Of a stretch of 64,000 nt of DNA, positions 41,146 to 64,000 are shown one piece after another. The translations under genes were made by a program, and so were the position numbers. The stretch is from the NCBI GenBank assembly GCA_947084965.1, contig CAMTUG010000004.1:87490-151489 (forward strand), read 5' to 3'. The notes under the pieces were generated by a model that saw nothing but the letters and a program-made list of their open reading frames with translations, ran no database searches and had not been told where the DNA came from. Source of the stretch: an uncultured Parcubacteria group bacterium. Lineage in GTDB: Bacteria > Patescibacteriota > Patescibacteriia > UBA9934 > CAMTUG01. Within the stretch, counting starts at the first letter, position 1; every line of letters starts with the position of its first letter.

Positions 41146-41167
41146 GGGTGCACACGAGTGTGCAGAA

Positions 41168-41200
41168 AAACGGCTAAATCTAGCCGTTTTTCTTGTTGAT
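41168..41200 (+). terminator. Rho-independent terminator
   Basis: AAAAACGGCTA-AATC-TAGCCGTTTTTCTTG. Confidence 0.5.
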
Positions 41201-41328
41201 AACTTTTCCCAGCGCACCATAGGCACACCTCGTGCGGGTGTTGGAGAATGGCCTGTGAAGGCGGCAGTTGACCGCCGTAAAACCAAACAGAAGCGTTGGA
41301 TGCTGACCAACATTTCTGAATCACTTTT

Positions 41329-41691
41329 ATGCCAAATGCCCCGAGTCATGATGTCACTCCGATCGAATCCGATTTTCCATCCGTTCCGAGCGTCCAGTAC
41401 GCGGGTGGGTTCGTCGAATTCGCACTGTGGTACGCGACGCCAAAGGTCGATCGCAAGCATAAAACGCAGAAGGCGTTTGCGGAATCAGTCGGAGTCTGCG
41501 AGGACACTCTCACTGACTGGAAACATAGACCGGAGTTCTGGCCGACAGTGCAACAGTTCATCGCGGAGCGCATGCGTGAACGTATTCCTGACGTGATCAA
41601 CGGACTATTTATCAACGCGTCCCATACGGGTAAGGCCTCTGACGTGGAGTCCTTCCTAAAAATCGCTGGGATCCTAAACCTTAAACGATAA
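41329..41691 (+). CDS. Hypothetical phage-associated small protein
   Basis: 120 aa, tightly coupled (4-nt gap) to the ParB-methyltransferase gene. Confidence 0.4.
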   Translation: MPNAPSHDVTPIESDFPSVPSVQYAGGFVEFALWYATPKVDRKHKTQKAFAESVGVCEDTLTDWKHRPEFWPTVQQFIAERMRERIPDVINGLFINASHTGKASDVESFLKIAGILNLKR

Positions 41692-41694
41692 CTT

Positions 41695-42957
41695 ATGCCA
41701 CAACTAAACATTCACGAGATGGCGATCGGAGATCTCAAGCCAGCCATTTATAACCCGAGAAAGATTTCTGATAAACAGAAAGAGGAACTCAAGACCAGCA
41801 TTCAGAAGTTCGGCTTCGTGGATCCGATCATCGTAAACGACCACAAGGAGAGGAAAGGCGTGGTCATCGGCGGTCACCAGAGATTATCCGTCGCGAAGGA
41901 ACTCGGATTCAAAAAGGTACCCGTCGTCCTCCTGAACTTGCCGGAAGCCAAGGAGCGCGAGCTGAACCTGCGTCTGAACAAAAACGTCGGGGAGTGGGAC
42001 ATCGATCTATTGCGCAACTTCGACATCGGGGATCTTCTGCGGGTCGGATTCGACGATCAGGATCTGCAAGACATATGGGCGGACACACTGTCCGTGACGG
42101 ACGACGAGTTTGACGTGGAAGAAGCCGTGCGAGCGATCGCTAAACCAAAAGCCAAGCTGGGAGATATCTATCAACTTGGGAGCCACCGAATCTCGTGCAA
42201 CGATGCCACCGACTTGGCGGCGGTACAAAAGCTCGTTGGCAACGAGCGGATGGATATGGTGACTCTGGATCCGATATACGGGATCGGCCTGTCGTACGAC
42301 AGGGGCGTGTCGACCAAGGGAAAGTACGCGGGTTCCGAAAAGGATCAGATGAAGGGAGATGAGTACCGCACGTTTTTAAAAACGGTGTTTGAAAATTCGC
42401 TGGCCGTTTCAAAGGAAGATCTGCATTTCTACTGCTGGAACGATCAACGGCACATCGGTCTCGTCCAGTCGCTCGTGGAGGAAACGAAACTTTCGAACAA
42501 GAGCGTCTGCCTGTGGGTGAAGAATAACTTCACGCCGGTTCCCGGGATCGCGTGGAACAAGAGCTACGAGGCGTGCGTGTACGCGACGCGCGGCAGGCCG
42601 TACTTGAATCCCGACGTTCAAAACCTGACGGAGATCATGAACAAGGAAGTCGATTCCGGCAACCGTCAGATCGACGACATCGTAGACCTGTTCGACCTCT
42701 GGCTCGTGAAGCGGCTCCCTGCCCAGGAGTACCAGCATGCGACCCAAAAGCCGCTTCCACTATACGAGAAGCCGTTGCGCCGATGCACCAAGGTCGGGGC
42801 GAACGTGTTGGATGTATTTTCCGGAAGCGGCACCACGCTTCTCGCGTGCGAGCAGATGAAGCGGACGGCCTTCGTCATGGAAAAGGATCCCGTCTTCGTG
42901 GACGTCTGCATTCAGCGTTTCGAGGAAACCACGGGCATCAAAGCTAAAAAACTCTAA
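41695..42957 (+). CDS. ParB-like nuclease domain fused to a DNA methyltransferase (orphan, phage-type)
   Basis: ParB motif VIGGHQRLSVAKELG followed by a methyltransferase region with DPIYGIG (DPPY-type motif IV). Confidence 0.75.
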   Translation: MPQLNIHEMAIGDLKPAIYNPRKISDKQKEELKTSIQKFGFVDPIIVNDHKERKGVVIGGHQRLSVAKELGFKKVPVVLLNLPEAKERELNLRLNKNVGEWDIDLLRNFDIGDLLRVGFDDQDLQDIWADTLSVTDDEFDVEEAVRAIAKPKAKLGDIYQLGSHRISCNDATDLAAVQKLVGNERMDMVTLDPIYGIGLSYDRGVSTKGKYAGSEKDQMKGDEYRTFLKTVFENSLAVSKEDLHFYCWNDQRHIGLVQSLVEETKLSNKSVCLWVKNNFTPVPGIAWNKSYEACVYATRGRPYLNPDVQNLTEIMNKEVDSGNRQIDDIVDLFDLWLVKRLPAQEYQHATQKPLPLYEKPLRRCTKVGANVLDVFSGSGTTLLACEQMKRTAFVMEKDPVFVDVCIQRFEETTGIKAKKL

Positions 42958-42964
42958 CCACCAT

Positions 42965-43711
42965 ATGAAGATAAAAAACGGAGACCTCGTTCAATTAGGC
43001 GATCACTTTTTAATCTGCGGCGACTCGATGAATGAGAAAACGGTCGGTCGGCTGCTCGCGGGACGCGAGATCCAGCTCGTCCTCACCGACCCGCCCTACG
43101 GGGTGAGCTACGTGGAGAGCAAGATGGGATTCACGCAGTCGCTCGCGAAGCCGAAGGTGATCCAGAATGATCAGATCGAAAGCGAGGAGGAGTACGCCTC
43201 GTTCACGCGGGCATGGCTCGGTGCCTGTACACCGTTCATGGCCAAGAAAAACTCCATGTACATCTTCAACTCCGACCGGATGCTGTTTGCCCTCCGGTCT
43301 GGGATGGAAGCCGCTGGTTTCAAGTTCGCACAACTTCTCATCTGGGCGAAGACGCACGCCGTCGTAGGCCGCATGGACTACCTGCCGTCGCACGAGCTGA
43401 TCGCCTACGGGTGGCATGGGACGCACGCGTTCCGCAAGTCGAAGGATAAGAGCGTCATCATCTGCCCGAAGCCAAGCAAGAGCAAGTGGCACCCAACGTC
43501 CAAGCCCCGGCAACTCCTGCGTCGATTGATTCTTAACAGCTCAAAGGTCGGCGACACGGTTTATGAGCCCTTTGCCGGCGGAGGGTCATGCCTTCTCTCA
43601 TGCGAAGAAACGAGGCGCAAATGCCTGGCGGTTGAGCTGGATACGGAATACTGCGAAACCATCGTCATGCTCTGGGAACGCATGACGGGAAAGGAGGCTA
43701 TTAAGAAATAA
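42965..43711 (+). CDS. DNA methyltransferase (N6-adenine/N4-cytosine, DPPY class), orphan
   Basis: LVLTDPPYGVSY. Confidence 0.75.
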   Translation: MKIKNGDLVQLGDHFLICGDSMNEKTVGRLLAGREIQLVLTDPPYGVSYVESKMGFTQSLAKPKVIQNDQIESEEEYASFTRAWLGACTPFMAKKNSMYIFNSDRMLFALRSGMEAAGFKFAQLLIWAKTHAVVGRMDYLPSHELIAYGWHGTHAFRKSKDKSVIICPKPSKSKWHPTSKPRQLLRRLILNSSKVGDTVYEPFAGGGSCLLSCEETRRKCLAVELDTEYCETIVMLWERMTGKEAIKK

Positions 43712-43715: not shown

Positions 43716-44228
43716 ATGCCGAAGAAAACAGAAGCGTATCCCGCGAACACCAAGCGGATCGACGCGCAGAAGAAGCTCCTGCTCCAGCACATCGAGAAGA
43801 CGCCGATCGTCGAGGTCGTGTGCCAGAAGGTCGGCATCGGACGCACGACCCTCTATCGCTGGCTACACGAGGACGAATCGTTCGCTAAGGAATATGGCGA
43901 GGCCTTCGGCACCGGGGTCGATCTCATCAGCGACCTCGCGGAGTCGAAGCTCATCGGGAAAATCCAGGAGGGCGACATGACAGCCGTGAAGCTCTGGCTC
44001 GGCACACACCGCAAGGACTTCGTGAACAAGCTTGAAGTGAGCGCGACCAGGCAGGAAGAGATGACCGAGGAAGAAAAGAAGTTGATCGAGGCGGCGCACG
44101 CCCGGCTCGGCCTGATTGCACCACCGACAATTATTAACCCGCAACCATATGTCCAACCAATTCCTAGACCAGAAAACGATGAACTTAATTCTAAGCAACA
44201 AGGCGGCGAGGCTCATGCTCGTGAATAA
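43716..44228 (+). CDS. Terminase small subunit-like HTH protein
   Basis: The position (5' of TerL, overlapping it), size (170 aa) and HTH (GIGRTTLYRWL) fit a small terminase subunit. Confidence 0.5.
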   Translation: MPKKTEAYPANTKRIDAQKKLLLQHIEKTPIVEVVCQKVGIGRTTLYRWLHEDESFAKEYGEAFGTGVDLISDLAESKLIGKIQEGDMTAVKLWLGTHRKDFVNKLEVSATRQEEMTEEEKKLIEAAHARLGLIAPPTIINPQPYVQPIPRPENDELNSKQQGGEAHARE

Positions 44229-45924
44229 GTCCCATCGCAACTTCTTCGCCACGTATTTTCCCCATTACCTGACGTACCCGTGCGCGGACATCCACCAGCG
44301 ACTCTTTGACCTCACCGAAGACGCGAACAACAAGTTCGCCGTAGGCCAGACGTTCCGAGGTAGCGGAAAGTCGACGATTGTCTCGCTGTCATACGCGCTC
44401 TGGGCGATTCTCGGGTGCCAGCAAAAGCACCTCGTCGTGCTCGTCGCGAAGACTCAAGAACAGGCGAAGAGATTACTCGACGCCATCAAGCGCGAGCTTG
44501 AGACGAATAAGCTTCTGCAAGTCGACTTCGGGAAAATCCACGAAGAGAGTACCCCGTGGAACTCGACAGCACTGACGTTCAATGACCAGAACGCACAGAT
44601 CACCGCCATTTCCATCGACCAGGCCATGCGCGGCATGCGCTTCCAGAACTACCGCCCCGACCTCATCATCCTTGACGACATCGAGGACTCCGCCTCCGTC
44701 CGTACTCTCGAGTCTCGCGACCGCCTGCAGGAGTGGTTCGACAAAGACCTGCTCCCGGCAGGCGACACGAATACGCGGGTTATTCTTCTGGGTAACAATC
44801 TACATCCGGACTCCCTGCCGAACCGCATCATCGACCGCGTGCAAAACAGACAGTTCGACGCGAAGGTTATAAGGTGCCCGCTCGTTGACGAGAACGGCAT
44901 CTGCGCTTGGCCAGGAAAGTTCCCGACGAAGGAGTCGTTGGAAGCGCTTCGCAAGCTGTATTCATCCGAGCGTACATGGCGACAGGAATTCTTGTTACAA
45001 CCCGTCCTTTCGGAAGAAACGATCGTGAACGAACGGCAGATCAACTATTACGACGAGTTTCCCGAGGACGAGGACTGTGGTGTCTACGCGGCAATCGGCA
45101 TCGATCTTGCCTGTAGCACGTCGTCGCGGGCGGACAAGACCGCGATGGTCTGCGCGAGGGTCTATGGCAAGGGCGACGAGATGCGCGTCTACCTATTGCC
45201 AAACCTGGTCAACGACCGGCTGGAAATCCACGGATCGCTTGCGGAATGTGTCAATCTCGCCGGCCGCATCAGTCTCGACGGCGGCACCGGCCGGTCGTCG
45301 GTTCGGATATTCGTCGAATCCGTCGGGTTTCAAAAGACGTTCGCGCAGCAGCTTACCTCCCGTGGCATGAAGCGGGTGGAGGAATTCCAGCCAGGAAAGA
45401 TTGGGGACAAGCGCGACCGCCTCTACATGGCAGCCGACCTCATCAAGAGCGGACAGGTTCTCTTCCCTCGGCACGGGCTGGAGGAACTCACCGGGCAGAT
45501 TATAGCCTTCGGCGTCGAGCGGCACGACGATCTTGTCGACGCGTTCACGACACTCGTACTTAAGGTGATTGAAAATAACCCGAGGAACTCCAGCGTCGGC
45601 GTCGCTGTCGGCAACCTCAATAAGATTTATACGCCCGAAGAACTTGCAATTGAGAGGGAAAATCAGCGTCGTGATTACCGTGCGATGATGGACGGGTACG
45701 ACTATCGGGTTATGCTGGCAGAGCTGCACGCCAAGGGACAGTGCCCTAATCTCCGCATTGGTAATCCGTACGTCGCAAAACGGAAAAAGGTTTCTAATCC
45801 TGAGAAGCTACCAACGAAAGCTTCTGAAAAATTGAAACCATCGCATACGTGTCCAAACCACAATAATCCAACATATTCTTCCGTAACTGAGACTTCTGTT
45901 CAGAAGGAAGGTCAGGATTCGTGA
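44215..45924 (+). CDS. Terminase large subunit
   Basis: Walker A in FRGSGKSTIV and a nuclease-domain Asp in AAIGIDLA. Start taken at the ATG overlapping the TerS stop. Confidence 0.75.
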   Translation: MLVNKSHRNFFATYFPHYLTYPCADIHQRLFDLTEDANNKFAVGQTFRGSGKSTIVSLSYALWAILGCQQKHLVVLVAKTQEQAKRLLDAIKRELETNKLLQVDFGKIHEESTPWNSTALTFNDQNAQITAISIDQAMRGMRFQNYRPDLIILDDIEDSASVRTLESRDRLQEWFDKDLLPAGDTNTRVILLGNNLHPDSLPNRIIDRVQNRQFDAKVIRCPLVDENGICAWPGKFPTKESLEALRKLYSSERTWRQEFLLQPVLSEETIVNERQINYYDEFPEDEDCGVYAAIGIDLACSTSSRADKTAMVCARVYGKGDEMRVYLLPNLVNDRLEIHGSLAECVNLAGRISLDGGTGRSSVRIFVESVGFQKTFAQQLTSRGMKRVEEFQPGKIGDKRDRLYMAADLIKSGQVLFPRHGLEELTGQIIAFGVERHDDLVDAFTTLVLKVIENNPRNSSVGVAVGNLNKIYTPEELAIERENQRRDYRAMMDGYDYRVMLAELHAKGQCPNLRIGNPYVAKRKKVSNPEKLPTKASEKLKPSHTCPNHNNPTYSSVTETSVQKEGQDS

Positions 45925-47266
45925 GCGTCGCCCAGCTCGCGGATGCCGTGCCGCCTTCGTGTATGGCGAGATTGTTGTAAGAAAGCTCGGGACACATGAC
46001 AGGAAGAACCTTCTTGATCGACGCGCTGCCGCCGAAGCGGGAGTCGACGTAATAGCCCTTCTTCACGATCATCATCAGATCGTAGATGCGATCGTTCACG
46101 CTCGCCATGAAGTCAGCGAACTCGGGCAGGTGCTCTCCAATCTCCGCGTTGCGCGATGCCTCGAACCGCGCGTTCCAAACGATCACGCTTCCGACGTCAC
46201 CGATATGTTTCTTGAGGGACTCCGCGACCATCGGCGCGGGGTCTTTCATTTCATCGGCGAGGAATTCGTAGTGCTCAGGATCAGCTTCCGGCTCGCGCAT
46301 GACGTGGACGGAATATTGGAACACGGCGTGCTGGTACGGTCGGTAGTCGTCGAAGAGCGGCACTGCCGGGAAATACGTTTCATAGTCCAAAAAGTAGAGC
46401 GGGTACTGCAAACTATCGAAGTCAGACTTGATCGCATCCTTATCAATCGAAAGAGTCGGCGTGGCCTTCGTGCCCGGCAGTTTGATATCTCCAAGTTCGG
46501 CCATGACGTCGGCCGGAACTTGGTCGGGCTTGATAAACCCGCGTTCCAAAAAGGCGACAAGCTTCTCTTTCGGAAGCGATGCGGCTATGGAATACTTGTC
46601 GTCGCCGTTCAGCTCGGAAAAATAACAGGCAAGGAACTCGCACTCCGCTGGGTCGTTGCAGGACATGACGTGCATGAGGCGCGGCACCTTGTCCCAGTCG
46701 AGGACTGCGAGGGCGCGTGGGATTTCTTTCTTCGCCATCGGCATGACGTTTTCGACCTCGTGCGTTATGTCTACCTTGGTAAACAATTGTCCCGGATCAA
46801 TCTCGCCGTTACGGACGTACTGATTGTTGACGTGGACAAGAAACGTACGGGAGACGCGGATGCCAGCCTCCTCAAGGCAGATGCGTTGGAAAGCGACGTC
46901 TGTGATGTGCTCCTCTTTTACGTCAGTGGAACTCTTCACTTCGTAGATATCCCACGAGCCGTCGGCATTCTTCGTAAGGATGTCGCAACGGCAAGAAAGC
47001 TTAGCCGTCATGAACGTCGGCTGAAGCAAAATGGTCGCGCCGCTCGCGATTGCCTTCTTGGTGTTCTCAGCGGCCGGCTTGCCAAACCCATCAACGTTCA
47101 CGCCGCTTGGAAAGAGCTTTTGCGCCCACGCGTCGATTACGTTTCCCTCATCGAAGATGCGTTGGAGCGCAGGATCAGTGGGTGGAACCAAATCCGGCCG
47201 TTGCTTCACGAGCCACAGCTCGCACGAGCATCGGAGAAATTGCATGAAGTTGGATTTGGAGAGCAT
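45794..47266 (-). CDS. DUF2779-like protein (RecB/PD-(D/E)xK nuclease-related)
   Basis: N-terminus MLSKSNFMQFLRCSCELWLVKQRPD fits the DUF2779 pattern (LSKSxF...C..LWL). Its 3' end overlaps the TerL 3' end convergently by about 130 nt. Confidence 0.5.
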   Translation of the reverse strand: MLSKSNFMQFLRCSCELWLVKQRPDLVPPTDPALQRIFDEGNVIDAWAQKLFPSGVNVDGFGKPAAENTKKAIASGATILLQPTFMTAKLSCRCDILTKNADGSWDIYEVKSSTDVKEEHITDVAFQRICLEEAGIRVSRTFLVHVNNQYVRNGEIDPGQLFTKVDITHEVENVMPMAKKEIPRALAVLDWDKVPRLMHVMSCNDPAECEFLACYFSELNGDDKYSIAASLPKEKLVAFLERGFIKPDQVPADVMAELGDIKLPGTKATPTLSIDKDAIKSDFDSLQYPLYFLDYETYFPAVPLFDDYRPYQHAVFQYSVHVMREPEADPEHYEFLADEMKDPAPMVAESLKKHIGDVGSVIVWNARFEASRNAEIGEHLPEFADFMASVNDRIYDLMMIVKKGYYVDSRFGGSASIKKVLPVMCPELSYNNLAIHEGGTASASWATLTNPDLPSEQKSQLRKNMLDYCGLDTYAMVSIFQKLSLVASQD

Positions 47267-47275: not shown

Positions 47276-49438
47276 TTAAAGCTTGGTGAGCGCGTCACGC
47301 ACGAGGTCGCGATACTCGTCGCGGATGCGATAGTTATCCTTCCGCGCACCCGGGCGGTCGTGCTCGAGGTCGTAAATCAGGATGGCGCGGAGGTGGGCGT
47401 TGTTCGGGTTCGTCACGAACTGCGAGATGTTGCTGAGATATCGGCCGGACTGCCCGACATCCTTGCCGATGCCATTCACGTACAGGCTATCGCGAAGCTC
47501 CTCCTGGGTAAAGCCGCGATTGTCCGAAAGCAGGGTTTTCAGGAAGACGATAAGGCGCGGCGTGAGGTCGCTCACGCGCTCAAGCGTCTCCTCGAGCCTG
47601 TAACGGATGTCGTCGGTCGTGAGGACGTCGACCGGCATCTCCTCGCGCGTATCGCTTTCGTCCTTGGCGTACGAGGCATCGATGTCCTCGGCGGTAAGGT
47701 GCCAGGCTTCGACAAGTGAAGAGATTATTACCTCGGTGCGTTCTTGAATAACGGTTGGAGTCCATGAATCGTAATCCACGACCTCCTGCGTCATGCGGAA
47801 GGCGGAGAGGCCGTCCCTGTTCGTCTCGCCGCGATAGATCTTCACCTTCTCGGCGAACGGCTTGTTGGAGGCGGATTGGTTCTTCGACTTCCGGCTCTCG
47901 TCCATGCTTCCGGCGAGGAGCGTGAGGTTGCCGAGCGTATTCACGAGCGAGTCGTGTTCGTCCTCGGTGAAGTTTGCCGACCAAGACGGGTCGGTCATCG
48001 TCTGCGGCAGGATGTGCTCGAGCTGGACATTCTTCGTGAACGGGATCTCGCGGATCACCGAGTCGTCGAGGAGCGAGTACTCGTACTTGGCGAGCGCGTA
48101 CTTGCCGCAGCTCGCATGGTAGACGTCGCCGCGCAGGTTCTCCGTCGCGTCGCGCACGACGCGGTTCTTGCGCAGGAACGTCTCGAGCCGCGCGAGGATG
48201 GCGTCGACGGGCTGGTTCGCGTTCGCGTCGCGCACGGACGCGAGAAGCGGGGCAAGCACCCCGCGCGAGGTGTGTCCGGCGACGAGCGACAGTCCGCAGA
48301 ATCGCTCGATTCCCTCGATCAGCGTTCCGGCATTCTGTTTGGACAGTCCGTTTCTCCACGCGGCGATGATGGGCGGAAGCCAGTATCCGTGGCCGACGTT
48401 CCATAAAAGAAGCAAGGCCTTCTTGGCGGAACCGTTAAGGGGCTCGCCATGCCACGCGCCAGCCTTCAGTTCGACATACGCATCGACGGACTTCTTCCAG
48501 TCGTCCATGAACGTTCCCGTCGACAGACCAGCGTCCTTGATGTCCTCGGAGATCTCGCGGAACAAGTCCTTGCGCGAGCGGTCGCCGACGACGGCGATGC
48601 GGTGGAACCGCAGGAGGTCGTCCATTGGCACGCCGACCCGCTCGATCTCGCGCCATGTGTCTAGGAATGGTCGCTTCTCGTCGTCGAAGGACTTCCGCGC
48701 CGTCGGATGCTCGGCGTTATGGCGCGTGGTTTCTTCCTCAAGGCGTCGGATGAGCAGGTTCTTGAGCAGGTCCTTCGTGTCCAAGTCCTTGCCGCGCGTG
48801 TTGATCGCCTCGAAGATGGTGTACGCCGACGAAAACGAGTCGCTCGTCATCACGACAAGCATCACCTCGTCGAGCAGGAAGTGGTAGAAATCGTCGAGAT
48901 ACGTCATGATGTCCACTTCCGCATTCTTTGACTTCAGCTCCTCGCTCTTCTCGTCGATGAATTGTTTGAGAAGCCGGATCGCCATCTTGTACGTCTCGGG
49001 GAGGGCGGATCTTTCGTAGCCGGAAAGAACGCCGACGGACTTCAGAATATTTGCCTCGAACGCCGCGCGCTCCTCGGGCTTCACGCTCAGGCGGCACTTC
49101 CCGCGAATGATGCAGCTCTCCTGAATCTCGTTCGCGCGGTCGGGAAGATCTCCCTCAAAGAAAAAATCACGGAGCACGGCGAGGAGAATCATGGTCGTCG
49201 TCAGGCGCTGTCGCCCGTCGACCACCTCGAAGTCCTTACTGTCCCCGCGATTGACCAGAATCAGTTTGTCCAAAAAGTATCCGTCCTCCTTGCGCTCGTA
49301 GGCTTTGGTGAGATCCATCCAGAAGTCCTCCACGTTCTCCATCGTCCACTCGTAAGGGCGTTGGTAGTCGGGAATATTGTAGTAATTGCCGCCGGCGACG
49401 ACTTCGCGCATCCGACAGGGCTTGGCAGTGATGTTCAT
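47276..49438 (-). CDS. GmrSD-family type IV (modification-dependent) restriction endonuclease, DUF262 + DUF1524, with an extra C-terminal domain
   Basis: DUF262 motif VVDGRQRLTTT (DGQQR variant) and DUF1524 His-Me finger region NVQLEHILPQ. Confidence 0.75.
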   Translation of the reverse strand: MNITAKPCRMREVVAGGNYYNIPDYQRPYEWTMENVEDFWMDLTKAYERKEDGYFLDKLILVNRGDSKDFEVVDGRQRLTTTMILLAVLRDFFFEGDLPDRANEIQESCIIRGKCRLSVKPEERAAFEANILKSVGVLSGYERSALPETYKMAIRLLKQFIDEKSEELKSKNAEVDIMTYLDDFYHFLLDEVMLVVMTSDSFSSAYTIFEAINTRGKDLDTKDLLKNLLIRRLEEETTRHNAEHPTARKSFDDEKRPFLDTWREIERVGVPMDDLLRFHRIAVVGDRSRKDLFREISEDIKDAGLSTGTFMDDWKKSVDAYVELKAGAWHGEPLNGSAKKALLLLWNVGHGYWLPPIIAAWRNGLSKQNAGTLIEGIERFCGLSLVAGHTSRGVLAPLLASVRDANANQPVDAILARLETFLRKNRVVRDATENLRGDVYHASCGKYALAKYEYSLLDDSVIREIPFTKNVQLEHILPQTMTDPSWSANFTEDEHDSLVNTLGNLTLLAGSMDESRKSKNQSASNKPFAEKVKIYRGETNRDGLSAFRMTQEVVDYDSWTPTVIQERTEVIISSLVEAWHLTAEDIDASYAKDESDTREEMPVDVLTTDDIRYRLEETLERVSDLTPRLIVFLKTLLSDNRGFTQEELRDSLYVNGIGKDVGQSGRYLSNISQFVTNPNNAHLRAILIYDLEHDRPGARKDNYRIRDEYRDLVRDALTKL

Positions 49439-49440
49439 AG

Positions 49441-49672
49441 CGAGGGTTAGGTTTCAACCCACGGGCCGCCATGAATACAAAGCGACACCCGGTGGTGACG
49501 AAACCCAACCCCCGTACGGATCGTACGAGTGTTGTTTTAACCGGATGCCGCTCAATGCGTGCGATCCGGATAGGGAAAAATCCCCTGGTAAGGAGGTTGG
49601 GTTTCGTCAGGGCTAGAATAGCTTACAAACACCCATAAGTAAAGTCCTTTTTATGGAGTTTTGAGCCCTTCC
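49441..49672 (-). ncRNA. Candidate structured RNA between the DGR reverse transcriptase and GmrSD
   Basis: A perfect 15-bp long-range stem (TGACGAAACCCAACC / GGTTGGGTTTCGTCA) encloses about 95 nt with nested hairpins, CCGGAT...ATCCGG and CGTACGATCCGTACG. The strand was not resolved. Confidence 0.3.
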
Positions 49673-51130
<1,458 letters not shown>

Positions 51131-57400: not shown

Positions 57401-57503
57401 CGCTCTGATAGTGGGCGACGCGCTTTCCGTCCGGCGTATATTCAGCCACCACGGTGCTCTGCGCACTTTCGGCAACGAGATTGTATTTCTTAGGCTTCGG
57501 CAT
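54450..57503 (-). CDS. hsdR: Type I restriction enzyme R subunit
   Basis: 1017 aa with Walker A TTGSGKTLTSF and DEAH-box FDECHRSQ. Confidence 0.9.
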   Translation of the reverse strand: MPKPKKYNLVAESAQSTVVAEYTPDGKRVAHYQSEAELERAFIEQLKTQAYDYVTITSEEELVANLRQQLEKLNGFAFTDTEWKQFFTTEIANANQSIEEKTATIQEDYVKNLIRDDGTTKNVYLLKEDNIHNNSLQVINQYATEDGQRANRYDVTILVNGLPLVHVELKRRGVAIQEAFNQINRYQRESFWASAGLFEYVQLFVISNGTHTKYYSNTTRKQHIKESSEGGVKKGKRASNSFEFTSWWADATNRPITDLMDFAKTFFAKHALLNILTRYCVFTTDRLLLVMRPYQIVATERILNRIEVSTNYKKLGTIEAGGFVWHTTGSGKTLTSFKTAQLASKMSFVDKVVFVVDRKDLDYQTMREYDKFEKGAANSNTSTSVLKRQLENPNANIIITTIQKLDRFIARNGAHAIFDGHVVLIFDECHRSQFGDMHTAITKAFKNYHLFGFTGTPIFAANASSGGRIDLKTTEQAFGEKLHTYTIVNAIADKNVLPFKVDYVSTVREAEDIEDKKVNDIDREAVLAAPERLANIVRYIRDHFDQKTKRNSFYQLKDRRLAGFNSIFAVSSIDAAKKYYAEFKRQLADVPSDQKLKVATIFSFGVNEEEADGVIDENSEDTSGLDASSRDFLDSAIADYNTMFGTSYDTSADKFQNYYKDVSQKVKDREIDILIVVNMFLTGFDATTLNTLWVDKNLRLHGLLQAYSRTNRILNSVKTFGNIVCFRNLEKATNESIALFGDKEAGGIVLLKSYVDYYNGYRDGEKEVRGYQSLVDELRQKFPIGEEIVGEQAQKDFIKLYGAILRVRNILSAFDEFTGNEILTERDVQDYHSLYIDLYHEFRKSDEAEKENINDDLVFEMELIKQVEINIDYVLGLIKKYHEDHTKNREILADINKAIDSSIELRNKKDLINKFITSLDVHSIVDEDWHKFVEEKKIEELDQIIEQENLDPEATHKFIQNAFRDGVVSTTGTAITKVLPPVSRFSPSGERTQKRESVLSKLTGFFERFFDISGGRF

Positions 57504-58644
57504 ATTCTTTGAAAGTCAGGAGTTTCTCCCGGTAGTACTCATACTGTTTGCGCCGAGCGGCGAGCTCTGCTGGAAGACCGACGGAGATGTCATTCACAAG
57601 TGCGTCGAACTTGTCGAGAATCGATACGATGCGTTCTTGTTGGGCAAGAGGTGGGATGGGGATTTGGACAGTCGTTAGTTCTTTTTTATTAACCGCTGGG
57701 ATACTTCCGGTTTTTCTTAGCCCAACAATTGCTGCCTGGATATTCTTAAGATAGTAGTAGACATATTTTGTAAGCAATCCTTCTTTCCGACTTCTGATCC
57801 TGTAACAAAGTGGGCCGCACCAGAAATCTGTTTTTTGATAGCCAACGTGTCCTGCGCCACCCTGTCCCCTGGAAGGAATAGTGATCGTTTCAGCTGGTGA
57901 ATTTTTTTCTGATAGGTAACCGGAAGGTTCATTCCCTGCATTAATAAAAGGAAAGGCATTTACGCCTATAATTGAACTTCTATCAGGTGCTTGACCTGTG
58001 CCAATATCGCAAACCTCACCCAAAGCCGTCCATTCTAGATCCGCATCTAACACTAGAAGTTTCGAACGATAATGTTCGTATTGCTTCTTCCTTGCTTCCA
58101 GCTCTGCTTCCAGCTCTGCTTCCAGCTCTGTGAAAGAGTTTAGCACGCGGACAATCTCTTCTTGGACAGCGACAGGAGGGATGGGGATTTTGATTCGATT
58201 TAAAAAATCAACTGTAATTCCTTTTACTATCGTTCCATTTCCGACAACGTTTATCGTTTGAAAATAATAGGTTAAAAATCTGTTGTTTAGAAATGGTTGC
58301 AATTCAAGCCCGCGCAGATCTTGATTGATCGCAATATCTGTCCCCGCAATTTTCATTTTTCCCGGTGAAATTTTTACAGCAACTATCACGCTACCCTTTG
58401 GAATCAAGTGACTTGAGCTGTCTTCCAGTCCTTCTTTGGTAATGAAATTTCTAGTTGCGTGAATTTCAATATTTACGTTGGAAAGATCTCCAACTGAAGC
58501 CCATGGGATATCACCGTTCCAATAGCTTAATCTAGACTTAGATGGAGTTCCGCCTCCAATATTTCTAATAACACATTCGCCTAATGGTTTGAATACGACC
58601 CCATTCGGGCAGAATTGAGCAATTAATTTTTCAATCTTACTCAT
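57490..58644 (-). CDS. hsdS: Type I restriction-modification specificity subunit
   Basis: Two target-recognition domains separated by conserved helices (LEAELEAELEARKKQYEHYRSKLL and LAARRKQYEYYREKLL). It overlaps hsdR by 14 nt. Confidence 0.85.
   Translation of the reverse strand: MSKIEKLIAQFCPNGVVFKPLGECVIRNIGGGTPSKSRLSYWNGDIPWASVGDLSNVNIEIHATRNFITKEGLEDSSSHLIPKGSVIVAVKISPGKMKIAGTDIAINQDLRGLELQPFLNNRFLTYYFQTINVVGNGTIVKGITVDFLNRIKIPIPPVAVQEEIVRVLNSFTELEAELEAELEARKKQYEHYRSKLLVLDADLEWTALGEVCDIGTGQAPDRSSIIGVNAFPFINAGNEPSGYLSEKNSPAETITIPSRGQGGAGHVGYQKTDFWCGPLCYRIRSRKEGLLTKYVYYYLKNIQAAIVGLRKTGSIPAVNKKELTTVQIPIPPLAQQERIVSILDKFDALVNDISVGLPAELAARRKQYEYYREKLLTFKEYAEA
58095..58130. repeat. Tandem 12-bp repeat (GCTTCCAGCTCT)x3 inside the hsdS central conserved region, encoding (AELE)3 on the coding strand
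   Basis: Seen directly; three perfect copies. Confidence 0.85.
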
Positions 58645-58648
58645 ATGG

Positions 58649-60208
58649 CTACTTCGTTCCTTCTATATCACGCACAATTTCATCAATAGAGGTACGGAGT
58701 TCGTTTTGATGCGCAACAATTTTGTCGATCTCTGAATTCAACCTCATTATATCGACAACTTCGCGAATGTCTTCGGCTACGATATAACTTGAAACGGCAA
58801 TATTGTAGTCGTTGTCAGCGACAGCCTGATTATCGATAACTTTTGCGAAGTATTCGACGTCCTTACGGTTCGTGAATGCTTCCAAGATCTTTGCTCGATT
58901 TGTATCACTGAGCTTGTTTTTATTACCGCCGCGCACAAACTCTGAAGATGCGTCAATGAAAAGCGTTTTATTGTCCTTCTTGCTCTTCTTTAATACAATG
59001 ATGCAGGTCGCGATCGTAGTGCCGAAAAAGAGATCGGGCGGAAGCTGGATCACAGCGTCGACGTAGTTATTGTCGACAAGGTACTTGCGGATTTTTTGTT
59101 CTGCGCCTCCTCGGTAAAGGACACCAGGGAATTCAACGATCGCTGCAGTGCCGCTCGTGGAAAGCCACGAAAGCATGTGCATGGCAAAAGCAAGATCGGC
59201 CTTGCTCTTTGGAGCTAACACACCGGCTGGCGCGAAGCGTGGGTCATTAATAAGGAGAGGATTGCCGTCTCCTTCCCATGTAATCGAGTACGGCGGGTTT
59301 GAAACGATGGCATCAAACGGCTCGTCGTCCCAATGTTTTGGATCGGTCAGCGTGTCGCCGTGGGCGATATTGAAATGGTTGTAGTTGATGTCGTGCAGGA
59401 ACATGTTGATACGACAGAGGTTGTAGGTTGTGAGGTTGATTTCCTGGCCATAAAAACCCAGCCGCACATTTTCTTTGCCAAGAACCTTCGCGAATTTCAA
59501 AAGAAGCGATCCAGAACCGCAGGCAGGGTCATAAACCTTGTTTACTTCCATTTTGCCGACAGTCGTGATCTCAGCAAGAAGCTCGCTGACTTCTTGCGGC
59601 GTGTAGTATTCGCCTCCCGACTTGCCGGCATTCGATGCGTACATCGCCATGAGGTACTCATACGCATCACCAAACATGTCGATCGTGTTCTCCGTATAAT
59701 CTCCGAGGCTCAGATCGCCAATCGTTTCCAAAAGCTTAGCGAGCTTTTGATTTCGCTTCTCGACTGTATTGCCGAGCTTGGGCGAATTAACGTCAAGATC
59801 TTGAAACAGGCCGTTCAAATCATCCTCGCTATCAAATCCCTTCGCGGAACTTTCAATGTTACGGAATACTGCGGCGAGCGTCTCGTTAAGATTCGCGTCT
59901 TCCCGAGCCCGTGCGCGAACATTCACGAAGAGCTCGCTTGGCAGAATGTAAAATCCTTTTTCTTTCACTGTGTCAGCCCGACCAAACTCCGCGTCTTTGT
60001 CGGAAAGGGCGGCGTAGTTGAAGCTGGCGGTACCAGCGCGGCGTTCATCAGCATTGATGTAGCTTGTGAGATTCTCGCTGATGAAGCGGTAAAAAAGCAT
60101 TCCAAGCACATACTGCTTGAAATCCCAGCCATCAATGCTCCCTCGCAGATCGTTTGCGATTTGCCAGATAGCGCGATGCAGCTCTGCGCGTTCGTCTTCT
60201 TTGCTCAT
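58649..60208 (-). CDS. hsdM: Type I restriction-modification N6-adenine DNA methyltransferase subunit
   Basis: Motif I DPACGSGSLL and motif IV VSNPPYS. Confidence 0.9.
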   Translation of the reverse strand: MSKEDERAELHRAIWQIANDLRGSIDGWDFKQYVLGMLFYRFISENLTSYINADERRAGTASFNYAALSDKDAEFGRADTVKEKGFYILPSELFVNVRARAREDANLNETLAAVFRNIESSAKGFDSEDDLNGLFQDLDVNSPKLGNTVEKRNQKLAKLLETIGDLSLGDYTENTIDMFGDAYEYLMAMYASNAGKSGGEYYTPQEVSELLAEITTVGKMEVNKVYDPACGSGSLLLKFAKVLGKENVRLGFYGQEINLTTYNLCRINMFLHDINYNHFNIAHGDTLTDPKHWDDEPFDAIVSNPPYSITWEGDGNPLLINDPRFAPAGVLAPKSKADLAFAMHMLSWLSTSGTAAIVEFPGVLYRGGAEQKIRKYLVDNNYVDAVIQLPPDLFFGTTIATCIIVLKKSKKDNKTLFIDASSEFVRGGNKNKLSDTNRAKILEAFTNRKDVEYFAKVIDNQAVADNDYNIAVSSYIVAEDIREVVDIMRLNSEIDKIVAHQNELRTSIDEIVRDIEGTK

Positions 60209-60211: not shown

Positions 60212-61129
60212 CTATTTGTTCAAATCGTAGCTCTGCTTGATAAGTCCGAGCGCGTAATCAAAATCCTGATCCGACTTGATCTTGATCTCGTAATCTCCGT
60301 TGCCCCAATGACCTTTTTTCGGATTGGTGAAATCCGTCGCCCGATGCTCTGGATCGTTTAACTCGCCGCTTTTTACGTTGAGCGTAATCCGTAGTTCGTC
60401 CTTATAGAAGATTACGTCAGCAAAGTTCGTCGTCAGTTTGTAAGCGACGTACATTTTCTTGGGTACTTCGGTTACTTCCTCGTCAAATGCCAAGATCGCT
60501 TCGCGCAACTTCATGAAGATGGCTTTGGTTACCTCGTTCGATTTTTGCACGTGCTCTTCTATAGTGTAATTTTTCTGCAACGGTTCGGCACCATCTGGAG
60601 ATTTCTCATGCTTTGCTTTACGGACAATGCCTGATGTTGAAACTTTGACGCGCTGATAATTTTCCGGCTCGAGATACAAAATGTTGTCATCGTAAATCCT
60701 GTAGCGAAAGAGCTCGATATTGATAGGAAGAAAATCCGCAGTGTCGATGTCGAACTTGTTGTAGCTTTCGGCGACGCAAATCACGCGGGACGAGTCCCAA
60801 TCGACCTCAATAGCAACCGCACGTTCTCCACAGAGGGCTTCAAACTCGGCCTTGTGATCGAGAAGCCAGCGAAGGTACGAGAGGCCTTGGTTGATCACGC
60901 TTTCATTTGTCGACCGTTTGTATTCGATAATAACCGGCGCACCGTTCTTATCGATTCCGAGCGTGTCGATCCGGCCGCCGAAGCTCGTTGAGTACTCGGT
61001 AGCCAAGAACGTGATATTCAAAATCTCCTCAAGATTTTGCTCGAAAAGCCGCTGGAGATCTCGTTCTAGACGGACATCCTTGGCGGTTAGGCGTTTTACC
61101 TTGGTTTGATTGATCTGAAATAAGGCCAT
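60212..61129 (-). CDS. PD-(D/E)xK nuclease-superfamily-like protein co-transcribed with hsdMSR
   Basis: GGRIDTLGIDKNGAPVIIEYKR fits a D...(D/E)xK pattern; 4-nt gap to hsdM. Confidence 0.45.
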   Translation of the reverse strand: MALFQINQTKVKRLTAKDVRLERDLQRLFEQNLEEILNITFLATEYSTSFGGRIDTLGIDKNGAPVIIEYKRSTNESVINQGLSYLRWLLDHKAEFEALCGERAVAIEVDWDSSRVICVAESYNKFDIDTADFLPINIELFRYRIYDDNILYLEPENYQRVKVSTSGIVRKAKHEKSPDGAEPLQKNYTIEEHVQKSNEVTKAIFMKLREAILAFDEEVTEVPKKMYVAYKLTTNFADVIFYKDELRITLNVKSGELNDPEHRATDFTNPKKGHWGNGDYEIKIKSDQDFDYALGLIKQSYDLNK

Positions 61130-61262
61130 AATTGGGTTTTGGATTGGCCTAAGTTTATGCGAAATCAGCGTTTTTGGCTACCTTGTCGCCTAAATGAAGG
61201 GGTTTTCAGGGACTTAGTTACCAACAGCTAGGCGGACTAGACGCCCCGCAGGGGTTGCGGCA

Positions 61263-62636
61263 TTGATGTGTTGTATGAAAAACACACAAGGTGGCGTGAC
61301 GACCCAGGTGGGGATTACACGCACAAAACACGAACAGGACAGGTCGGCGGTTCCAGAGGCCGTTAAGTACTGCCTTTACGCTCGTAAGAGTAGCGAATCG
61401 GCAGAACGTCAGGTTCTCTCGATCGATTCGCAGACCAAAGAAATGTTGCAGATCGCAGAACGTGACGGGCTGAATGTGGTGGAAATCAAGCGTGAAAGTC
61501 ACTCGGCTAAGGCTACTGGCGAGCGTCCGGTTTTTAACGAACTTTTGCGGGATGTCCGTGAGAAAAAGTTCAACGGAATCCTGACGTGGGCACCGGATCG
61601 ACTAAGCCGTAACGCGGGTGACCTCGGAGCAGTAGTCGACCTGATAGACCAAGGACTGCTTGTAGAGATTCGGACGCACGGACAGACATTCAGTAACAAT
61701 CCAAACGAGAAGTATCTGCTGATGATTCTTGGCTCAACGGCTAAACTCGAAAACGATCACCGAGGAGAAAACGTAAAACGTGGGCTTCGCACGCGAGTCG
61801 AGATGGGATTCTGGCCGGGCATGGCACCAATCGGATACTCTGATCAAAACTTAATGGATAAGAAGGGTCAAAAGCTCCTCGATCCTGTGCGAGCACCGAT
61901 CGTAAAGCAGATGTTTGAGAAAGTCGCCTACGAAAAATGGAGCGGACGAAAGCTCTACAACTGGCTCAAGCACGATTTGAACTTCAAGACGCGCGGCAAT
62001 AAAACACTAACGCTCAGTGGTATCTACCGCATCTTCGAGAATCCCTTCTACCATGGGCGGTTCGAGTTTCCACGCAACACTGGGAACTGGTACGAAGGAA
62101 AGCACAAACCAATCATCACGAAGGAGCTGTTCGATCTGGCCCATGTTCAATTAAAACGCGATCAGATCGTGCGGGAGAACAAGGAGTTCGCCTTCACCAA
62201 ACTGTTCACGTGTGGACAATGTGGGTCGGGAATGTCGGCACAAGAAAAGTACAAGCAACGGAAGGACGGTGGCCACACGCGATATGTCTACTATGGCTGT
62301 ACGCGTTCGCGGGATCGCAACTGCACCAATCCGTATATCAGAGAAGATGAGCTGATCGTAGAGCTACTGAAAATCATCGATGAAATCGATATCAACGAGC
62401 TTGGATTGAAAATAAAACTCGAAGAAGAAATAAAACGCTTTAGCCGCTTCGAACGATTGTTCCGTGGTGGAACGTCTGTGCCGGAAGGAACTACAGAGGA
62501 GATGGACGTCCGTGCGTACATGAAGTATCTCCTACGCGAAGGAAGCATGTCGGAGAAGCGAGAATTGCTTGGGAACCTAAGATCTAGACTACTCTGCACT
62601 AACAAACAGGTCTCAGTCATTGATCGAAGCAACTAG
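61263..62636 (+). CDS. Large serine recombinase (resolvase/integrase family)
   Basis: Catalytic region KYCLYARKSSESAERQ, recombinase domain and C-terminal Cys cluster (CGQCGSGM...YYGCTRSRDRNC). The real start may be a few codons downstream. Confidence 0.8.
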   Translation: MMCCMKNTQGGVTTQVGITRTKHEQDRSAVPEAVKYCLYARKSSESAERQVLSIDSQTKEMLQIAERDGLNVVEIKRESHSAKATGERPVFNELLRDVREKKFNGILTWAPDRLSRNAGDLGAVVDLIDQGLLVEIRTHGQTFSNNPNEKYLLMILGSTAKLENDHRGENVKRGLRTRVEMGFWPGMAPIGYSDQNLMDKKGQKLLDPVRAPIVKQMFEKVAYEKWSGRKLYNWLKHDLNFKTRGNKTLTLSGIYRIFENPFYHGRFEFPRNTGNWYEGKHKPIITKELFDLAHVQLKRDQIVRENKEFAFTKLFTCGQCGSGMSAQEKYKQRKDGGHTRYVYYGCTRSRDRNCTNPYIREDELIVELLKIIDEIDINELGLKIKLEEEIKRFSRFERLFRGGTSVPEGTTEEMDVRAYMKYLLREGSMSEKRELLGNLRSRLLCTNKQVSVIDRSN

Positions 62637-64000
62637 AATCTCGTAATGTTCGTGGAATACGGAATCCATCATTTCCAGAAGGTACTGCACATTCTTTTGG
62701 GTTTCAGGAACCAAAGACGGATCAAACCCAGCGCCCGTTATGTGTGACTGATCGTTCGTGTATTTATAGATCGCTGTCTTTTTGTTTTCATCGAAAGTCA
62801 GAGCTTCCATCTTTTTATAAAGCGTCTGATTGCTTGGGACTCTAAACATCAAAAATGTTTCCAAAACCTTTCGGGCGATATTAGGAATATGGTAGACGGA
62901 AGCGATACTTCCATCGGTCTCAAATTGATGCAAAATCTTGAACAAGTAATGATACTCGCTCTCATGGTTCCTTAAATCTTTGTCGAGTTCAGCTAAATAG
63001 GCGGTTCTTCCTTCTGAGGCTGAATACTGATTTTTGATCATGTAATATTTACTCCCACCCGTCTTGCTGAGCCAGTTTAAGATCAACTTCAAAAAATCAA
63101 AATTGTGAGTCAATAGAAAGACCTGCCTCGCGTCCTTTACTGCATTCTTGAGGTAAGCAAACGCTTGAAAAAGAGAATTGGAATCCAAACTAGAGATCGG
63201 ATCATCAACGACGATGATTCCGTTCTCCAGATCAAAATCCTGATCCTTGAGTTGGATAACAAAGTATAGGAAGGCGACTGCCGTCTTTTCACCCTCGCTC
63301 AAATTTTTGGCAAGTATGCCATTTCGTTTTATCAGGTAACCGCCATCCGGAGCAACCTCGAAAACTATTTCGTTTCTTCCAAGAAACGTTCCCAATTCCT
63401 TGTTTAGAGAATCACAGGCTCTGTGTTCCGAAGATATCTTTCCTTTGTTGTCGTTGATTCTTTTCTTCAGTGCCGAAATACCAAGAAAGCTCTCGTCGCC
63501 AGCATCCCCTTTTTCAAGTCGATGGATTTCCTTTGAGGCTGCGGCAATCTCATTGTCCAAAGCCTTCACTTCTTCAAAGATCGTGCTCAAGTGATGCTGT
63601 TTGAGTAGCTCGGCAGCCTTATCCTTCTCTGACTGAAAGTTATCACTTTTTTGGTTGTGTTGATCCACCAACTCATTAAGTGAAGCGACAGCTTCCTTAA
63701 AGTTATTGCTGAGCGACTTGGAAAAGGATAACGACTCGGTCGTCTTTTGTTTTTTGTTGGTCAGAATCTCAACCATCGCTAAAAGCTCAGCGCAAGAATT
63801 CTCCTTCTCTTGGTTGTAAGACATTACCCTCGAGGCGAATTTTGTTTGCAGATCGTTGTAAAATTGCGCCTTGTCGGGCACCTGCCTATTTTGTACAGCT
63901 TGAATGAAACCCTGTAGATGCGTGATCTGGGAGTCGATTCTGCTCTTCAGTTTTTTGTCGGCCTCATTGAAGTGACCAAGAAGCGCCTCGACTCTTCCGG
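62613..64000 (-). CDS. ABC/AAA-type ATPase (abortive-infection/RloA-like), partial; the N-terminus lies beyond the right window edge
   Basis: Signature-like LSEGEKTAVAFLYF, Walker B plus D-loop IIVVDDPISSLD and H-loop LLTHN. The frame stays open from 63881 to the window edge (...GRVEALLGHFNEADKK...). Confidence 0.55.
   Translation of the reverse strand, partial: GRVEALLGHFNEADKKLKSRIDSQITHLQGFIQAVQNRQVPDKAQFYNDLQTKFASRVMSYNQEKENSCAELLAMVEILTNKKQKTTESLSFSKSLSNNFKEAVASLNELVDQHNQKSDNFQSEKDKAAELLKQHHLSTIFEEVKALDNEIAAASKEIHRLEKGDAGDESFLGISALKKRINDNKGKISSEHRACDSLNKELGTFLGRNEIVFEVAPDGGYLIKRNGILAKNLSEGEKTAVAFLYFVIQLKDQDFDLENGIIVVDDPISSLDSNSLFQAFAYLKNAVKDARQVFLLTHNFDFLKLILNWLSKTGGSKYYMIKNQYSASEGRTAYLAELDKDLRNHESEYHYLFKILHQFETDGSIASVYHIPNIARKVLETFLMFRVPSNQTLYKKMEALTFDENKKTAIYKYTNDQSHITGAGFDPSLVPETQKNVQYLLEMMDSVFHEHYEILVASIND

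Follow-up and report, generated by a model that had tools for sequence, protein, structure and literature searches.

We analysed a window of 64,000 nt from contig CAMTUG010000004.1 (positions 87,490 to 151,489, forward strand) of an uncultured Parcubacteria group bacterium, a member of the Patescibacteria (candidate phyla radiation, CPR). The right-hand part of the window carries an island, 40143-64990 (24,848 bp), that combines a large serine recombinase (LSR) with genes for the small and large terminase subunits (TerS and TerL), two DNA methyltransferases (MTases), a DUF2779 nuclease, the restriction enzyme GmrSD, a diversity-generating retroelement (DGR), a type I restriction-modification (R-M) system and an ABC-type ATPase. 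Genes were called on the open reading frames (ORFs) of the window with Pfam, PHROGs and PADLOC (PADLOC-DB v2), tRNAs with ARAGORN and RNA families with Rfam, and all of the gene content listed in an earlier first-pass annotation of the same DNA was recovered. The best named homologues of IF3, the product of infC in the left part of the window, all belong to Candidatus Uhrbacteria or Patescibacteria, in line with an Uhrbacteria-like CPR host. The GC content of the island is 51.1%, compared with 58.1% in the remaining window. Both ends were located, the right one about 990 nt past the window in L001, a Logan contig that is 100% identical to window positions 51721-64000 and runs 1050 nt past the window end; coordinates beyond 64000 are window-equivalent positions projected from L001. 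The ends, the recombinase and the genes of the left part are as follows.

40116..40142, minus strand: chromosomal side of attL, with a hairpin at 40116-40134 and T-runs on either side
40143..40357, no strand assigned: attL, with the core TGGCGGG at 40143-40149 followed by a conserved element-side arm of ~215 nt ('el')
40342..41145, plus strand: ORF of ~267 aa with no Pfam, PHROG, PADLOC or PDB match
41329..41691, plus strand: TerS-like helix-turn-helix (HTH) protein of 120 aa, a possible regulator (weak HTH_Tnp_1_2, phrog_2538; dN/dS 0.12)
41695..42957, plus strand: ParB_N-fused N6/N4 DNA MTase (Pfam, phrog_498 4.7e-99, PADLOC MTase_II; dN/dS 0.09)
42965..43711, plus strand: second N6/N4 DNA MTase (Pfam, PHROGs and PADLOC; dN/dS 0.08)
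43716..44228, plus strand: TerS (phrog_24579 1.1e-10, HTH_Tnp_1_2, weak Sf6_terminase; dN/dS 0.26)
44179..45924, plus strand: TerL (phrog_38 1.7e-73; dN/dS 0.10)
61213..61270, plus strand: conserved motif upstream of the LSR gene, AGTTACCAAC...GACGCCCC...GTTGCGGCATT, kept in L071 and in both L073 copies
61263..62636, plus strand: LSR, with Resolvase, Recombinase and Zn_ribbon_recom domains; likely start GTG at 61296
64976-64997 (window-equivalent), no strand assigned: attR, with the motif at 64976-64990, the core TGGCGGG from ~64991 and a conserved 89-nt arm
Predicted attP junction: ...CCGATAAGAAGTTGTCC joined to TGGCGGGACGGAGGGGTTAAGTACC
Predicted empty attB junction: ...GAAGTTGGTCATTTTTCA joined to TGGCGGGCCGGACGGGATTCGAACC

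Relatives were gathered with two anchors. Scanning IMG/VR with a TerL alignment yielded about 33 loci whose TerL is 35-46% identical to that of the window and which keep the order MTase(s), TerS, TerL, and a metagenome scan anchored on the LSR confirmed more than 574 relatives, of which the best 80 (59-88% identity) were analysed. Close relatives of TerL and the MTases were taken from Logan, ENA and JGI contigs (L002, L009, L010-13 and the P0012 contig). Several of the family contigs bear size-fraction labels in their names, for example 'Hain-H43-02um' and 'Hain-H41-01um'. The recurrence of gene families was counted over 118 related loci.

The boundaries of the island are defined by two att arms. 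attL and attR have TGGCGGG in common, and 19 of their first 30 nt are identical. The left arm starts TGGCGGGACGGAGGGGTTAAGTACC; its opening 25 nt resemble a tRNA 3' end on the minus strand, and conservation stops abruptly at its left edge, 40143. In L002 and L010-13 this arm is 92-95% identical, above the identity of the coding regions, and matches to an arm profile sit at the left ends of other family members. We take the hairpin immediately to the left of attL to be the terminator that the targeted tRNA gene originally had. We considered the arm as a non-coding RNA or tRNA-like gene and rejected this, as it has no Rfam family and no ARAGORN tRNA, and RNAalifold with 17 homologues predicts no pairs. 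The ~215-nt left arm has the look of an att arm that binds protein and contains short repeats.

The right end was recognised from relatives. In L010 and L073 the left arm is directly preceded by a second conserved sequence, which terminates in GATAAGAARTTGTCC. This motif is present as a single copy in L001, at 64976-64990, ~100 nt past the start of the AAA_13 ATPase gene and 60 nt before the contig end, and is followed by TGGCGGGCCGGACGGGATTCGAACCCGCGAAC, whose reverse complement reads as a tRNA 3' end that has a canonical T-loop and a long variable arm. The attR arm motif in L001 reads GATAAGAAGTTGTCC and then TGGCGGGCCGGACGGGATTCGAACC, itself the reverse complement of the tRNA 3' end. The target tRNA is visible over these 60 nt only, on the minus strand just right of the window, and the T-loop and long variable arm in this partial sequence make it most likely a tRNA-Ser. 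In seven relatives (L072, L073, L075, L076, L104, L130 and L144) the attR arm adjoins the 3' end of a minus-strand tRNA-Ser called by ARAGORN, and in L071 a comparable tRNA-like 3' end, without an ARAGORN call, comes after it. The first tRNA downstream of the LSR, 0.1-6.1 kb away, is a convergent tRNA-Ser in 35 of 59 LSR-anchored loci and a tRNA-Asp in 4 of the 59. L001 itself breaks at one end inside the target tRNA right after attR (its positions 1-60 correspond to 64991-65050) and at the other in the DGR target gene past the variable repeat. Both have the look of assembly breaks at repeated or heterogeneous sequence, and may reflect heterogeneity of the att site in the population.

The LSR is the only recombinase in the island. 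It matches the phrog_95 integrases (1.2e-61) and, in the PDB, the integrases SPbeta YokA and TP901-1, and an S-x6-Q motif is invariant in 15 homologues, its Ser being the probable catalytic residue. With the three Pfam domains of the protein and an attL/attR pair that has a common core at a conserved target, the locus has the make-up of an LSR element, and its mobility as an LSR island is well supported by these sequence features. This agrees with the first-pass annotation, which had proposed one composite mobile island with defence cargo: the region is att-bounded and has a single LSR. That annotation had also placed the right end outside the window and advised extending the contig rightwards to find it; the extension through L001 recovered the attR arm and part of the tRNA. 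The AAA_13 ATPase occupies a cargo slot between the recombinase and attR and so lies within the island, whose end falls past this gene. The left boundary had been set at the terminator near 41.2 kb, which proved about 1 kb off. That terminator-like hairpin (~41168-41195) is internal, lying 3' of the island ORF at 40342-41145, and the true end is attL at 40143.

The arms also indicate how many elements are present. An arm search found no second att arm inside the window, and no meaningful long direct or inverted repeats flank the island there; with only one attL arm and one attR arm and none between them, the region holds one element rather than two in tandem. The alternative is that independent neighbours lie side by side, namely a terminase/GmrSD block up to 49685, the DGR, an R-M island and an LSR element. 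Nucleotide similarity to relatives, which spans 41256-49685, ends abruptly at 49685 in the comparison with L002, L009 and L010; the DGR is an indel relative to L002; and these three contigs have no LSR in the sequence available, all of which would suit such a patchwork. Sharp internal breakpoints are, however, the product expected of modular cargo exchange within one element. In L071, which has the closest LSR (88% identical), an MTase and TerS lie ~8.7 kb upstream of the LSR with DUF2779 in between. Given this arrangement, the single pair of arms (40143 and ~64990) and a reciprocal linkage of TerL and LSR over 48 loci, described below, we consider independent neighbours very unlikely.

Arms do occur in tandem elsewhere in the family. 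In L010 and L073 the right arm is joined straight to the left arm, forming an attP-like junction, and these junctions (on the left of L010, and in L073) point to tandem accretion of elements; they would also fit circles. Between positions 6400 and 14400 of L073 there are at least four att-arm junctions beside tRNA-Ser genes; the array contains two minimal units, each consisting of an arm and an LSR (2.6-2.9 kb), and an arm in inverted orientation. The tycheposon islands of Prochlorococcus reportedly form tandem arrays that resemble those of L073.

Within these bounds the terminase genes stand without a virion. Portal, capsid, tail and lysis genes are all missing from 40143 to ~64990 (Pfam, PHROGs and PADLOC on the window and L001), as the first-pass annotation had stated for the window, where none was found from 40.1 kb to the window end. 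As a positive control, the viral contig L047, with a TerL only 28% identical, gave a portal (1.3e-123) and a major head protein (1.6e-107) directly after TerL. The head, tail and lysis modules of a temperate prophage are thus absent over the whole element between its att bounds, and the head and tail modules that an ordinary prophage might have had just outside the window are absent up to attR at ~64990. Across the 118 loci no portal or capsid family recurs.

TerL is predicted to be catalytically intact: the Walker A motif GSGKST, the Walker B motif DLIILDDIED and the nuclease Asp/Glu residues are all conserved. TerS retains its HTH for DNA recognition, and TerL is full, with a conserved C-terminal tail. 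Protein searches returned 581 TerL homologues, and the only match by sequence to a solved structure was a weak one to T7 maturase B (E = 0.004). In a comparison with 50,697 GenBank phage records, the window TerL was at most 26% identical to any TerL, an identity by which its clade is distinct from every described phage.

These properties bear on whether the terminase genes are a decaying prophage remnant at the tRNA around which a defence island has accreted. The order ParB-MTase, MTase, TerS, TerL is a typical start of a phage late operon, and the LSR resembles prophage integrases, as a remnant would predict. The catalytic motifs are nevertheless intact and dN/dS is 0.07-0.26 across all seven module genes at dS 0.4-1.5, and intact motifs under purifying selection argue that this is no decaying prophage. 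In addition, the same structure without structural genes is found in dozens of loci with TerL 35-46% identical, and no described phage has a TerL above the 26% limit. A prophage remnant therefore seems extremely unlikely.

The first-pass annotation had further placed the recombinase in the same element as the terminase, and linkage counts from both directions bear this out. Among the 24 TerL-anchored loci with enough sequence downstream of TerL, 18 have an LSR homologue (44-68% identical) there, beginning -24 to 4416 nt after TerL. Conversely, an MTase and TerS, in some cases with TerL, lie within 10 kb upstream of the LSR in 16 of the 24 LSR-anchored loci with 10 kb of upstream sequence, and in 14 of these 16 the orientation is the same. 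Over the 118 loci the families that recur are LSR (104), MTase (60), TerL (54) and TerS (53), the next being hsdM (15).

As judged from the sequences of these loci, the order in the family is attL arm, regulator slot, (HTH), ParB-MTase, (MTase), TerS, TerL, slot 1, LSR, slot 2, attR arm, tRNA-Ser. The position and orientation of the MTase-terminase module beside the attL arm are fixed, unlike the variable cargo. The regulator slot near the attL arm is short and variable and holds S24 repressors, HTH proteins or a 363-aa protein; the gene for the latter, beside the arm in relatives, has no family match. In the window this place is taken by the 40342-41145 ORF, whose C-terminus looks, by eye only, like a winged-helix DNA-binding domain. 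The 120-aa HTH protein is kept in L002, L010, L131 and L135. At least five members carry a gene for a CI/LexA-like S24 repressor one gene upstream of, and divergent from, the MTase-TerS-TerL operon. In L020, L021, L023, L024, L029 and L044 there are two full-length TerL paralogues in tandem between TerS and the LSR, both matching phrog_38.

The close relatives L002, L009, L010-13 and the P0012 contig have ParB-MTase, MTase, TerS, TerL and a convergent DUF2779 gene, and then GmrSD or another PD-(D/E)xK gene. Their flanks hold different defence genes (CBASS, a Thoeris TIR protein, S24 repressors and type I R-M among them) and, in every case, no structural genes. Neighbours sampled across the family comprise R-M enzymes, GmrSD, PLD-SNF2 helicases, reverse transcriptases (RTs), C5-MTases, a copper ATPase and small HTH proteins. 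A unit made up of the TerS C-terminus and TerL has been swapped in L010-13 (TerL 37% identical; window 44000-45837), between flanking genes that are 82-95% identical (MTases 95%, DUF2779 and GmrSD 82-88%). That TerL and the interacting C-terminus of TerS were exchanged together is what would be expected if the terminase must fit different helper portals.

TerL and MTase of the family type also occur in metagenome-assembled genomes (MAGs) outside Patescibacteria, namely L005 (Bdellovibrionales), P0050 (Heimdallarchaeaceae) and P0098 (Bacteroidota), and L005 has the LSR and an att arm as well. These members would reflect either cross-phylum spread or mis-binned CPR contigs.

The cargo of the island is mostly defence: GmrSD with DUF2779, the DGR, type I R-M, and the PADLOC candidate families PDC-S18 and PDC-S06. 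Slot 1 here holds DUF2779 and GmrSD, the DGR, a YbaK-like gene, type I R-M and PDC-S18; slot 2 holds PDC-S06.

45794..47266, minus strand: DUF2779 protein with an N-terminal Cas4-like PD-(D/E)xK domain (Pfam, PADLOC), convergent with TerL; dN/dS 0.07
47276..49438, minus strand: GmrSD type IV restriction enzyme (PADLOC HEC-06/Orf5-like; dN/dS 0.14)
49439..49685, no strand assigned: conserved non-coding region upstream of GmrSD, with a 22-nt inverted repeat (49496-49517 / 49588-49609)
49673..53803, minus strand: DGR cassette, with RT 49673-50833 (minus), avd ~50786-51130 (plus), template repeat (TR) 51146-51277, variable repeat (VR) 51599-51730 and target gene 51581-53803 (minus; 740 aa)
53925..54383, plus strand: small gene with a weak tRNA_edit (YbaK-like) match, common to L002 (tblastn 51% over 152 aa)
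54450..60208, minus strand: type I R-M, with hsdR 54450-57503 (EcoR124_C type), hsdS 57490-58644 and hsdM 58649-60208
60212..61129, minus strand: DUF5655/NucS-like protein, PADLOC candidate defence family PDC-S18 (1.5e-99)
62613..~64877, minus strand: AAA_13 ABC-type ATPase, PADLOC PDC-S06 (8.9e-255), weakly PrrC-like, running past the window end; 754 aa in L001

DUF2779, which matches only Cas4 models in PADLOC-DB v2, is kept after TerL in L002, L009, L010-13 and the P0012 contig. DUF2779 and GmrSD also form an adjacent pair at several unrelated positions (window 45794-49438, L019 1221-4437 and L042 952-4157), and the partner of DUF2779 in the P0012 contig is a PDDEXK_4 protein in place of GmrSD. 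DUF2779 may therefore belong to a two-gene restriction-type unit rather than to the terminase module. A small ORF near the GmrSD upstream region, 49386-49616, is kept in four loci.

The DGR has all the parts of such a cassette: the RT and Avd genes (Pfam RVT_1 and bAvd) and a TR/VR pair, a 132-nt repeat whose mismatches are nearly all at adenines of the minus strand. It is an insertion (49686-53873) relative to L002, where the flanks are contiguous. The avd-like gene is on the plus strand, opposite the RT, TR and target gene, and overlaps the RT start. RT homologues (~45% identical) occur as cargo in L019, L026, L036, L037, L039, L119, L128 and L132.

hsdR, hsdS and hsdM lie in a single operon, as in type I R-M systems, and type I R-M genes recur in the same cargo slot of relatives. 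In the centre of hsdS (58093-58130) a 12-nt unit is present in three tandem copies and overlaps a 14-nt match, TGCTTCCAGCTCTG. HsdS proteins of the EcoR124 type have a comparable 12-bp repeat, the copy number of which alters the spacer of the recognition sequence, and by analogy the repeat here could be a specificity-switching one. Relatives of the AAA_13 ATPase found in a search of genome contigs are all at most 67% identical.

What the terminase does in such an island can be approached from this gene content. We consider it somewhat probable that 40143 to ~64990 is one 24.8-kb LSR island at a tRNA-Ser gene whose TerS and TerL package it into the procapsids of a helper phage, a satellite function that we infer from sequence. 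In this scheme the LSR would integrate and excise the island, and the TerS/TerL holoenzyme would recognise and cut island DNA and pump it into helper-phage procapsids. Alternatively or in addition, the integrated copy could be packaged in situ, much as in lateral transduction. On arrival, the transferred DNA would be protected from restriction by the two orphan MTases of phage type, and the defence cargo would benefit the host and so pay for the upkeep of the island. In favour of this scheme are the fixed place and orientation of the module, the exchange of TerL together with the TerS C-terminus, the divergent S24 repressor genes and a TerL clade that stands apart from described phages.

Several observations weigh against this explanation. 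The pairwise identities of TerL do not correlate with those of the LSR (Spearman 0.07, a value reached in 132 of 500 permutations), and this lack of co-divergence suggests that the terminase module has been shuffled among elements rather than co-inherited with the LSR. To the right of the module, L002, L009 and L010 offer 6-8 kb of sequence, in which there is no LSR. The module is absent from L073, L077, L092 and L096, and is thus not essential for the element. Elements with both ends visible range from 2.6 kb (LSR only) to the 24.8 kb of the window, with no obvious capsid-size constraint. Among the ORFs of the island no primase, replicase or helicase was matched with Pfam or PHROGs, none recurs in the 118 loci, and no origin was found in the island. 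No helper phage is known or was observed, nor did an excised circle, an empty site (no syntenic relative of the host being available for comparison) or an encapsidated form come to light; the excised circular forms for which the first-pass annotation had advised looking did not appear, none of the contigs of the 150 loci examined being circular.

Some of these points would be accommodated if the island is mobile and the MTase-MTase-TerS-TerL module is itself defence cargo, either a decoy or interfering enzyme by which the DNA of an infecting phage is cut or mis-packaged, or the ATP-driven nuclease arm of a restriction-like system in which the MTases mark self. The module is dispensable for the element and is shuffled independently of the LSR. 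It is found among defence genes at every locus seen (CBASS, the Thoeris TIR protein, GmrSD, type I-III R-M and DGR), and in the lineage of the window the nuclease gene DUF2779 always follows TerL. Several features are harder to reconcile with a defence role. TerS, TerL and the 120-aa HTH protein have no match in PADLOC-DB v2, both MTases are of the phage orphan type (phrog_498), and the module keeps its place and orientation next to the attL arm while the cargo varies. The TerS HTH and a full TerL with its C-terminal tail are kept, as expected for real packaging, and the divergent SOS-type repressor gene upstream in several members is more typical of an induced phage-like operon. We regard a defence module as the main rival of helper-capsid packaging, and as unlikely.

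Comparison with known elements suggests where an island with helper-capsid packaging would stand. At 24.8 kb it is above the typical size of phage-inducible chromosomal islands (PICIs). The PICI core consists of an integrase, regulation genes, a primase-replicase and an own TerS, and serine and tyrosine recombinases are treated as exchangeable (PMC10085698). Like PICIs and the Staphylococcus aureus pathogenicity islands (SaPIs), the island is site-specific, with an integrase, its own TerS and accessory or defence cargo, and has no structural or lysis genes (PMC10085698). It differs in using a large serine rather than a tyrosine integrase, in also encoding TerL and in its CPR host; PICI-type satellites have a primase-replicase module (PMC10085698), whereas neither this nor a capsid-morphogenesis gene was found in the island. 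Of the PICI hallmarks it thus has the integrase and a TerS without other structural or lysis genes, and lacks the primase-replicase. As regards the PICI regulation genes (homologues of alpA, merR or stl), the window has only the 120-aa HTH protein and the unannotated ORF, and relatives have S24 repressors, HTH_17 or HTH_3.

Among described satellites, only the capsid-forming PICIs (cf-PICIs) encode TerL as well as TerS, and their terminases form satellite-specific clades (PMC10085698). The island likewise has its own TerS and TerL. The first-pass annotation had compared it with cf-PICI-like packaging hijackers; the hijacking of packaging remains plausible, whereas the cf-PICI label is wrong because the island is without capsid genes. 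What defines cf-PICIs is a set of capsid, portal, protease and head-tail adaptor or connector genes (PMC10085698), of which none is present in the island and none recurs in the 118 loci.

Tycheposons are also tRNA-proximal and have modular cargo, PICI-like TerS variants and, in a minority, LSRs (bioRxiv 10.1101/2020.12.28.424599). tRNA-proximal integration with tandem accumulation is found in the island family too, L073 having its four or more arm junctions by tRNA-Ser; the tyrosine recombinase and the hallmark replication genes are not. Tycheposons mostly carry tyrosine recombinases and replication genes, and their PICI-like forms are devoid of cargo and have TerS or a capsid protein (bioRxiv 10.1101/2020.12.28.424599); the island family, by comparison, combines TerS, TerL, MTases and heavy defence cargo, in Patescibacteria.

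Three further kinds of element have an LSR in common with the island. Prophages of the SPbeta, TP901-1 and phiC31 type have the same LSR domains, include the closest solved LSR homologues and show the order ParB-MTase, MTase, TerS, TerL; the island family differs from them in having no portal, head, tail, lysis or replication genes, TerL being followed directly by the LSR or by cargo. PLE, the phage-inducible chromosomal island-like element of Vibrio cholerae, is an LSR-integrated satellite without structural genes that depends on helper capsids. It uses the TerL of its helper, controlled via Gpi and GpsAB, has its own replication initiator and integrates in a repeat element, not a tRNA. LSR integration and the lack of structural genes are common to PLE and the island, and the two are not known to be related in sequence. 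The staphylococcal cassette chromosome (SCC) is an LSR-mobilised cassette (Ccr) with variable cargo and tandem or composite arrays at one site. It integrates in rlmH and is not known to carry a terminase or to occur outside staphylococci. The island family resembles SCC in LSR mobilisation, variable cargo and tandem arrays, and differs from it in target site and in carrying terminase genes.

The sequence to the left of the island has features of its own. SmpB, tmRNA and infC lie at 30.8-32.4 kb of the window. Between infC and attL, 32500-40100 is GC-rich (~62%) and has no Pfam match except a POT transporter, whose homologues are at most 63% identical, the best named ones coming from Proteobacteria, Planctomycetes and Myxococcota and not from CPR. 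infC is not followed by rpmI and rplT, unlike in the relative L153, and neither of the IF3 relatives L151 and L153 shows synteny with the window downstream of infC. This stretch may be a further acquired region beside the tmRNA/infC locus. Farther left, in 13989-23700, an IS200-like Y1 transposase ORF (13989-14672) precedes DNA with 65-70% GC, a strongly negative AT skew and very long overlapping ORFs on both strands; the plus-strand ORFs tested there have no Pfam match.

Few mobile elements and phages of Patescibacteria have been described so far, with only one phage and very few defence systems known (PMC12366544), and full-text searches of the literature turned up no account of an island in CPR bacteria that joins a terminase and an LSR at tRNA-Ser. 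The island is part of a large family for which no description was found and may represent a new kind of phage satellite. That these islands are a new satellite class specific to Patescibacteria, terminase-only (with all of TerS/TerL and with MTases that protect DNA, but without capsid genes) and integrated by an LSR at tRNA-Ser, and that they are a main means by which defence systems and DGRs spread from one CPR genome to another, through excision and packaging or through packaging in situ, is a proposal we make tentatively, as quite possible though short of probable. The att sites of the island are defined and directly testable, and an LSR with a defined attP and a tRNA-Ser attB is a candidate integration tool. 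For the biology of these bacteria, the family is a concrete and abundant carrier of defence systems, R-M, DGRs and copper-resistance genes in reduced genomes. If the terminase does package the island into helper capsids, a full terminase without capsid genes would be a satellite strategy not yet described, and it would point to helper phages of CPR bacteria.

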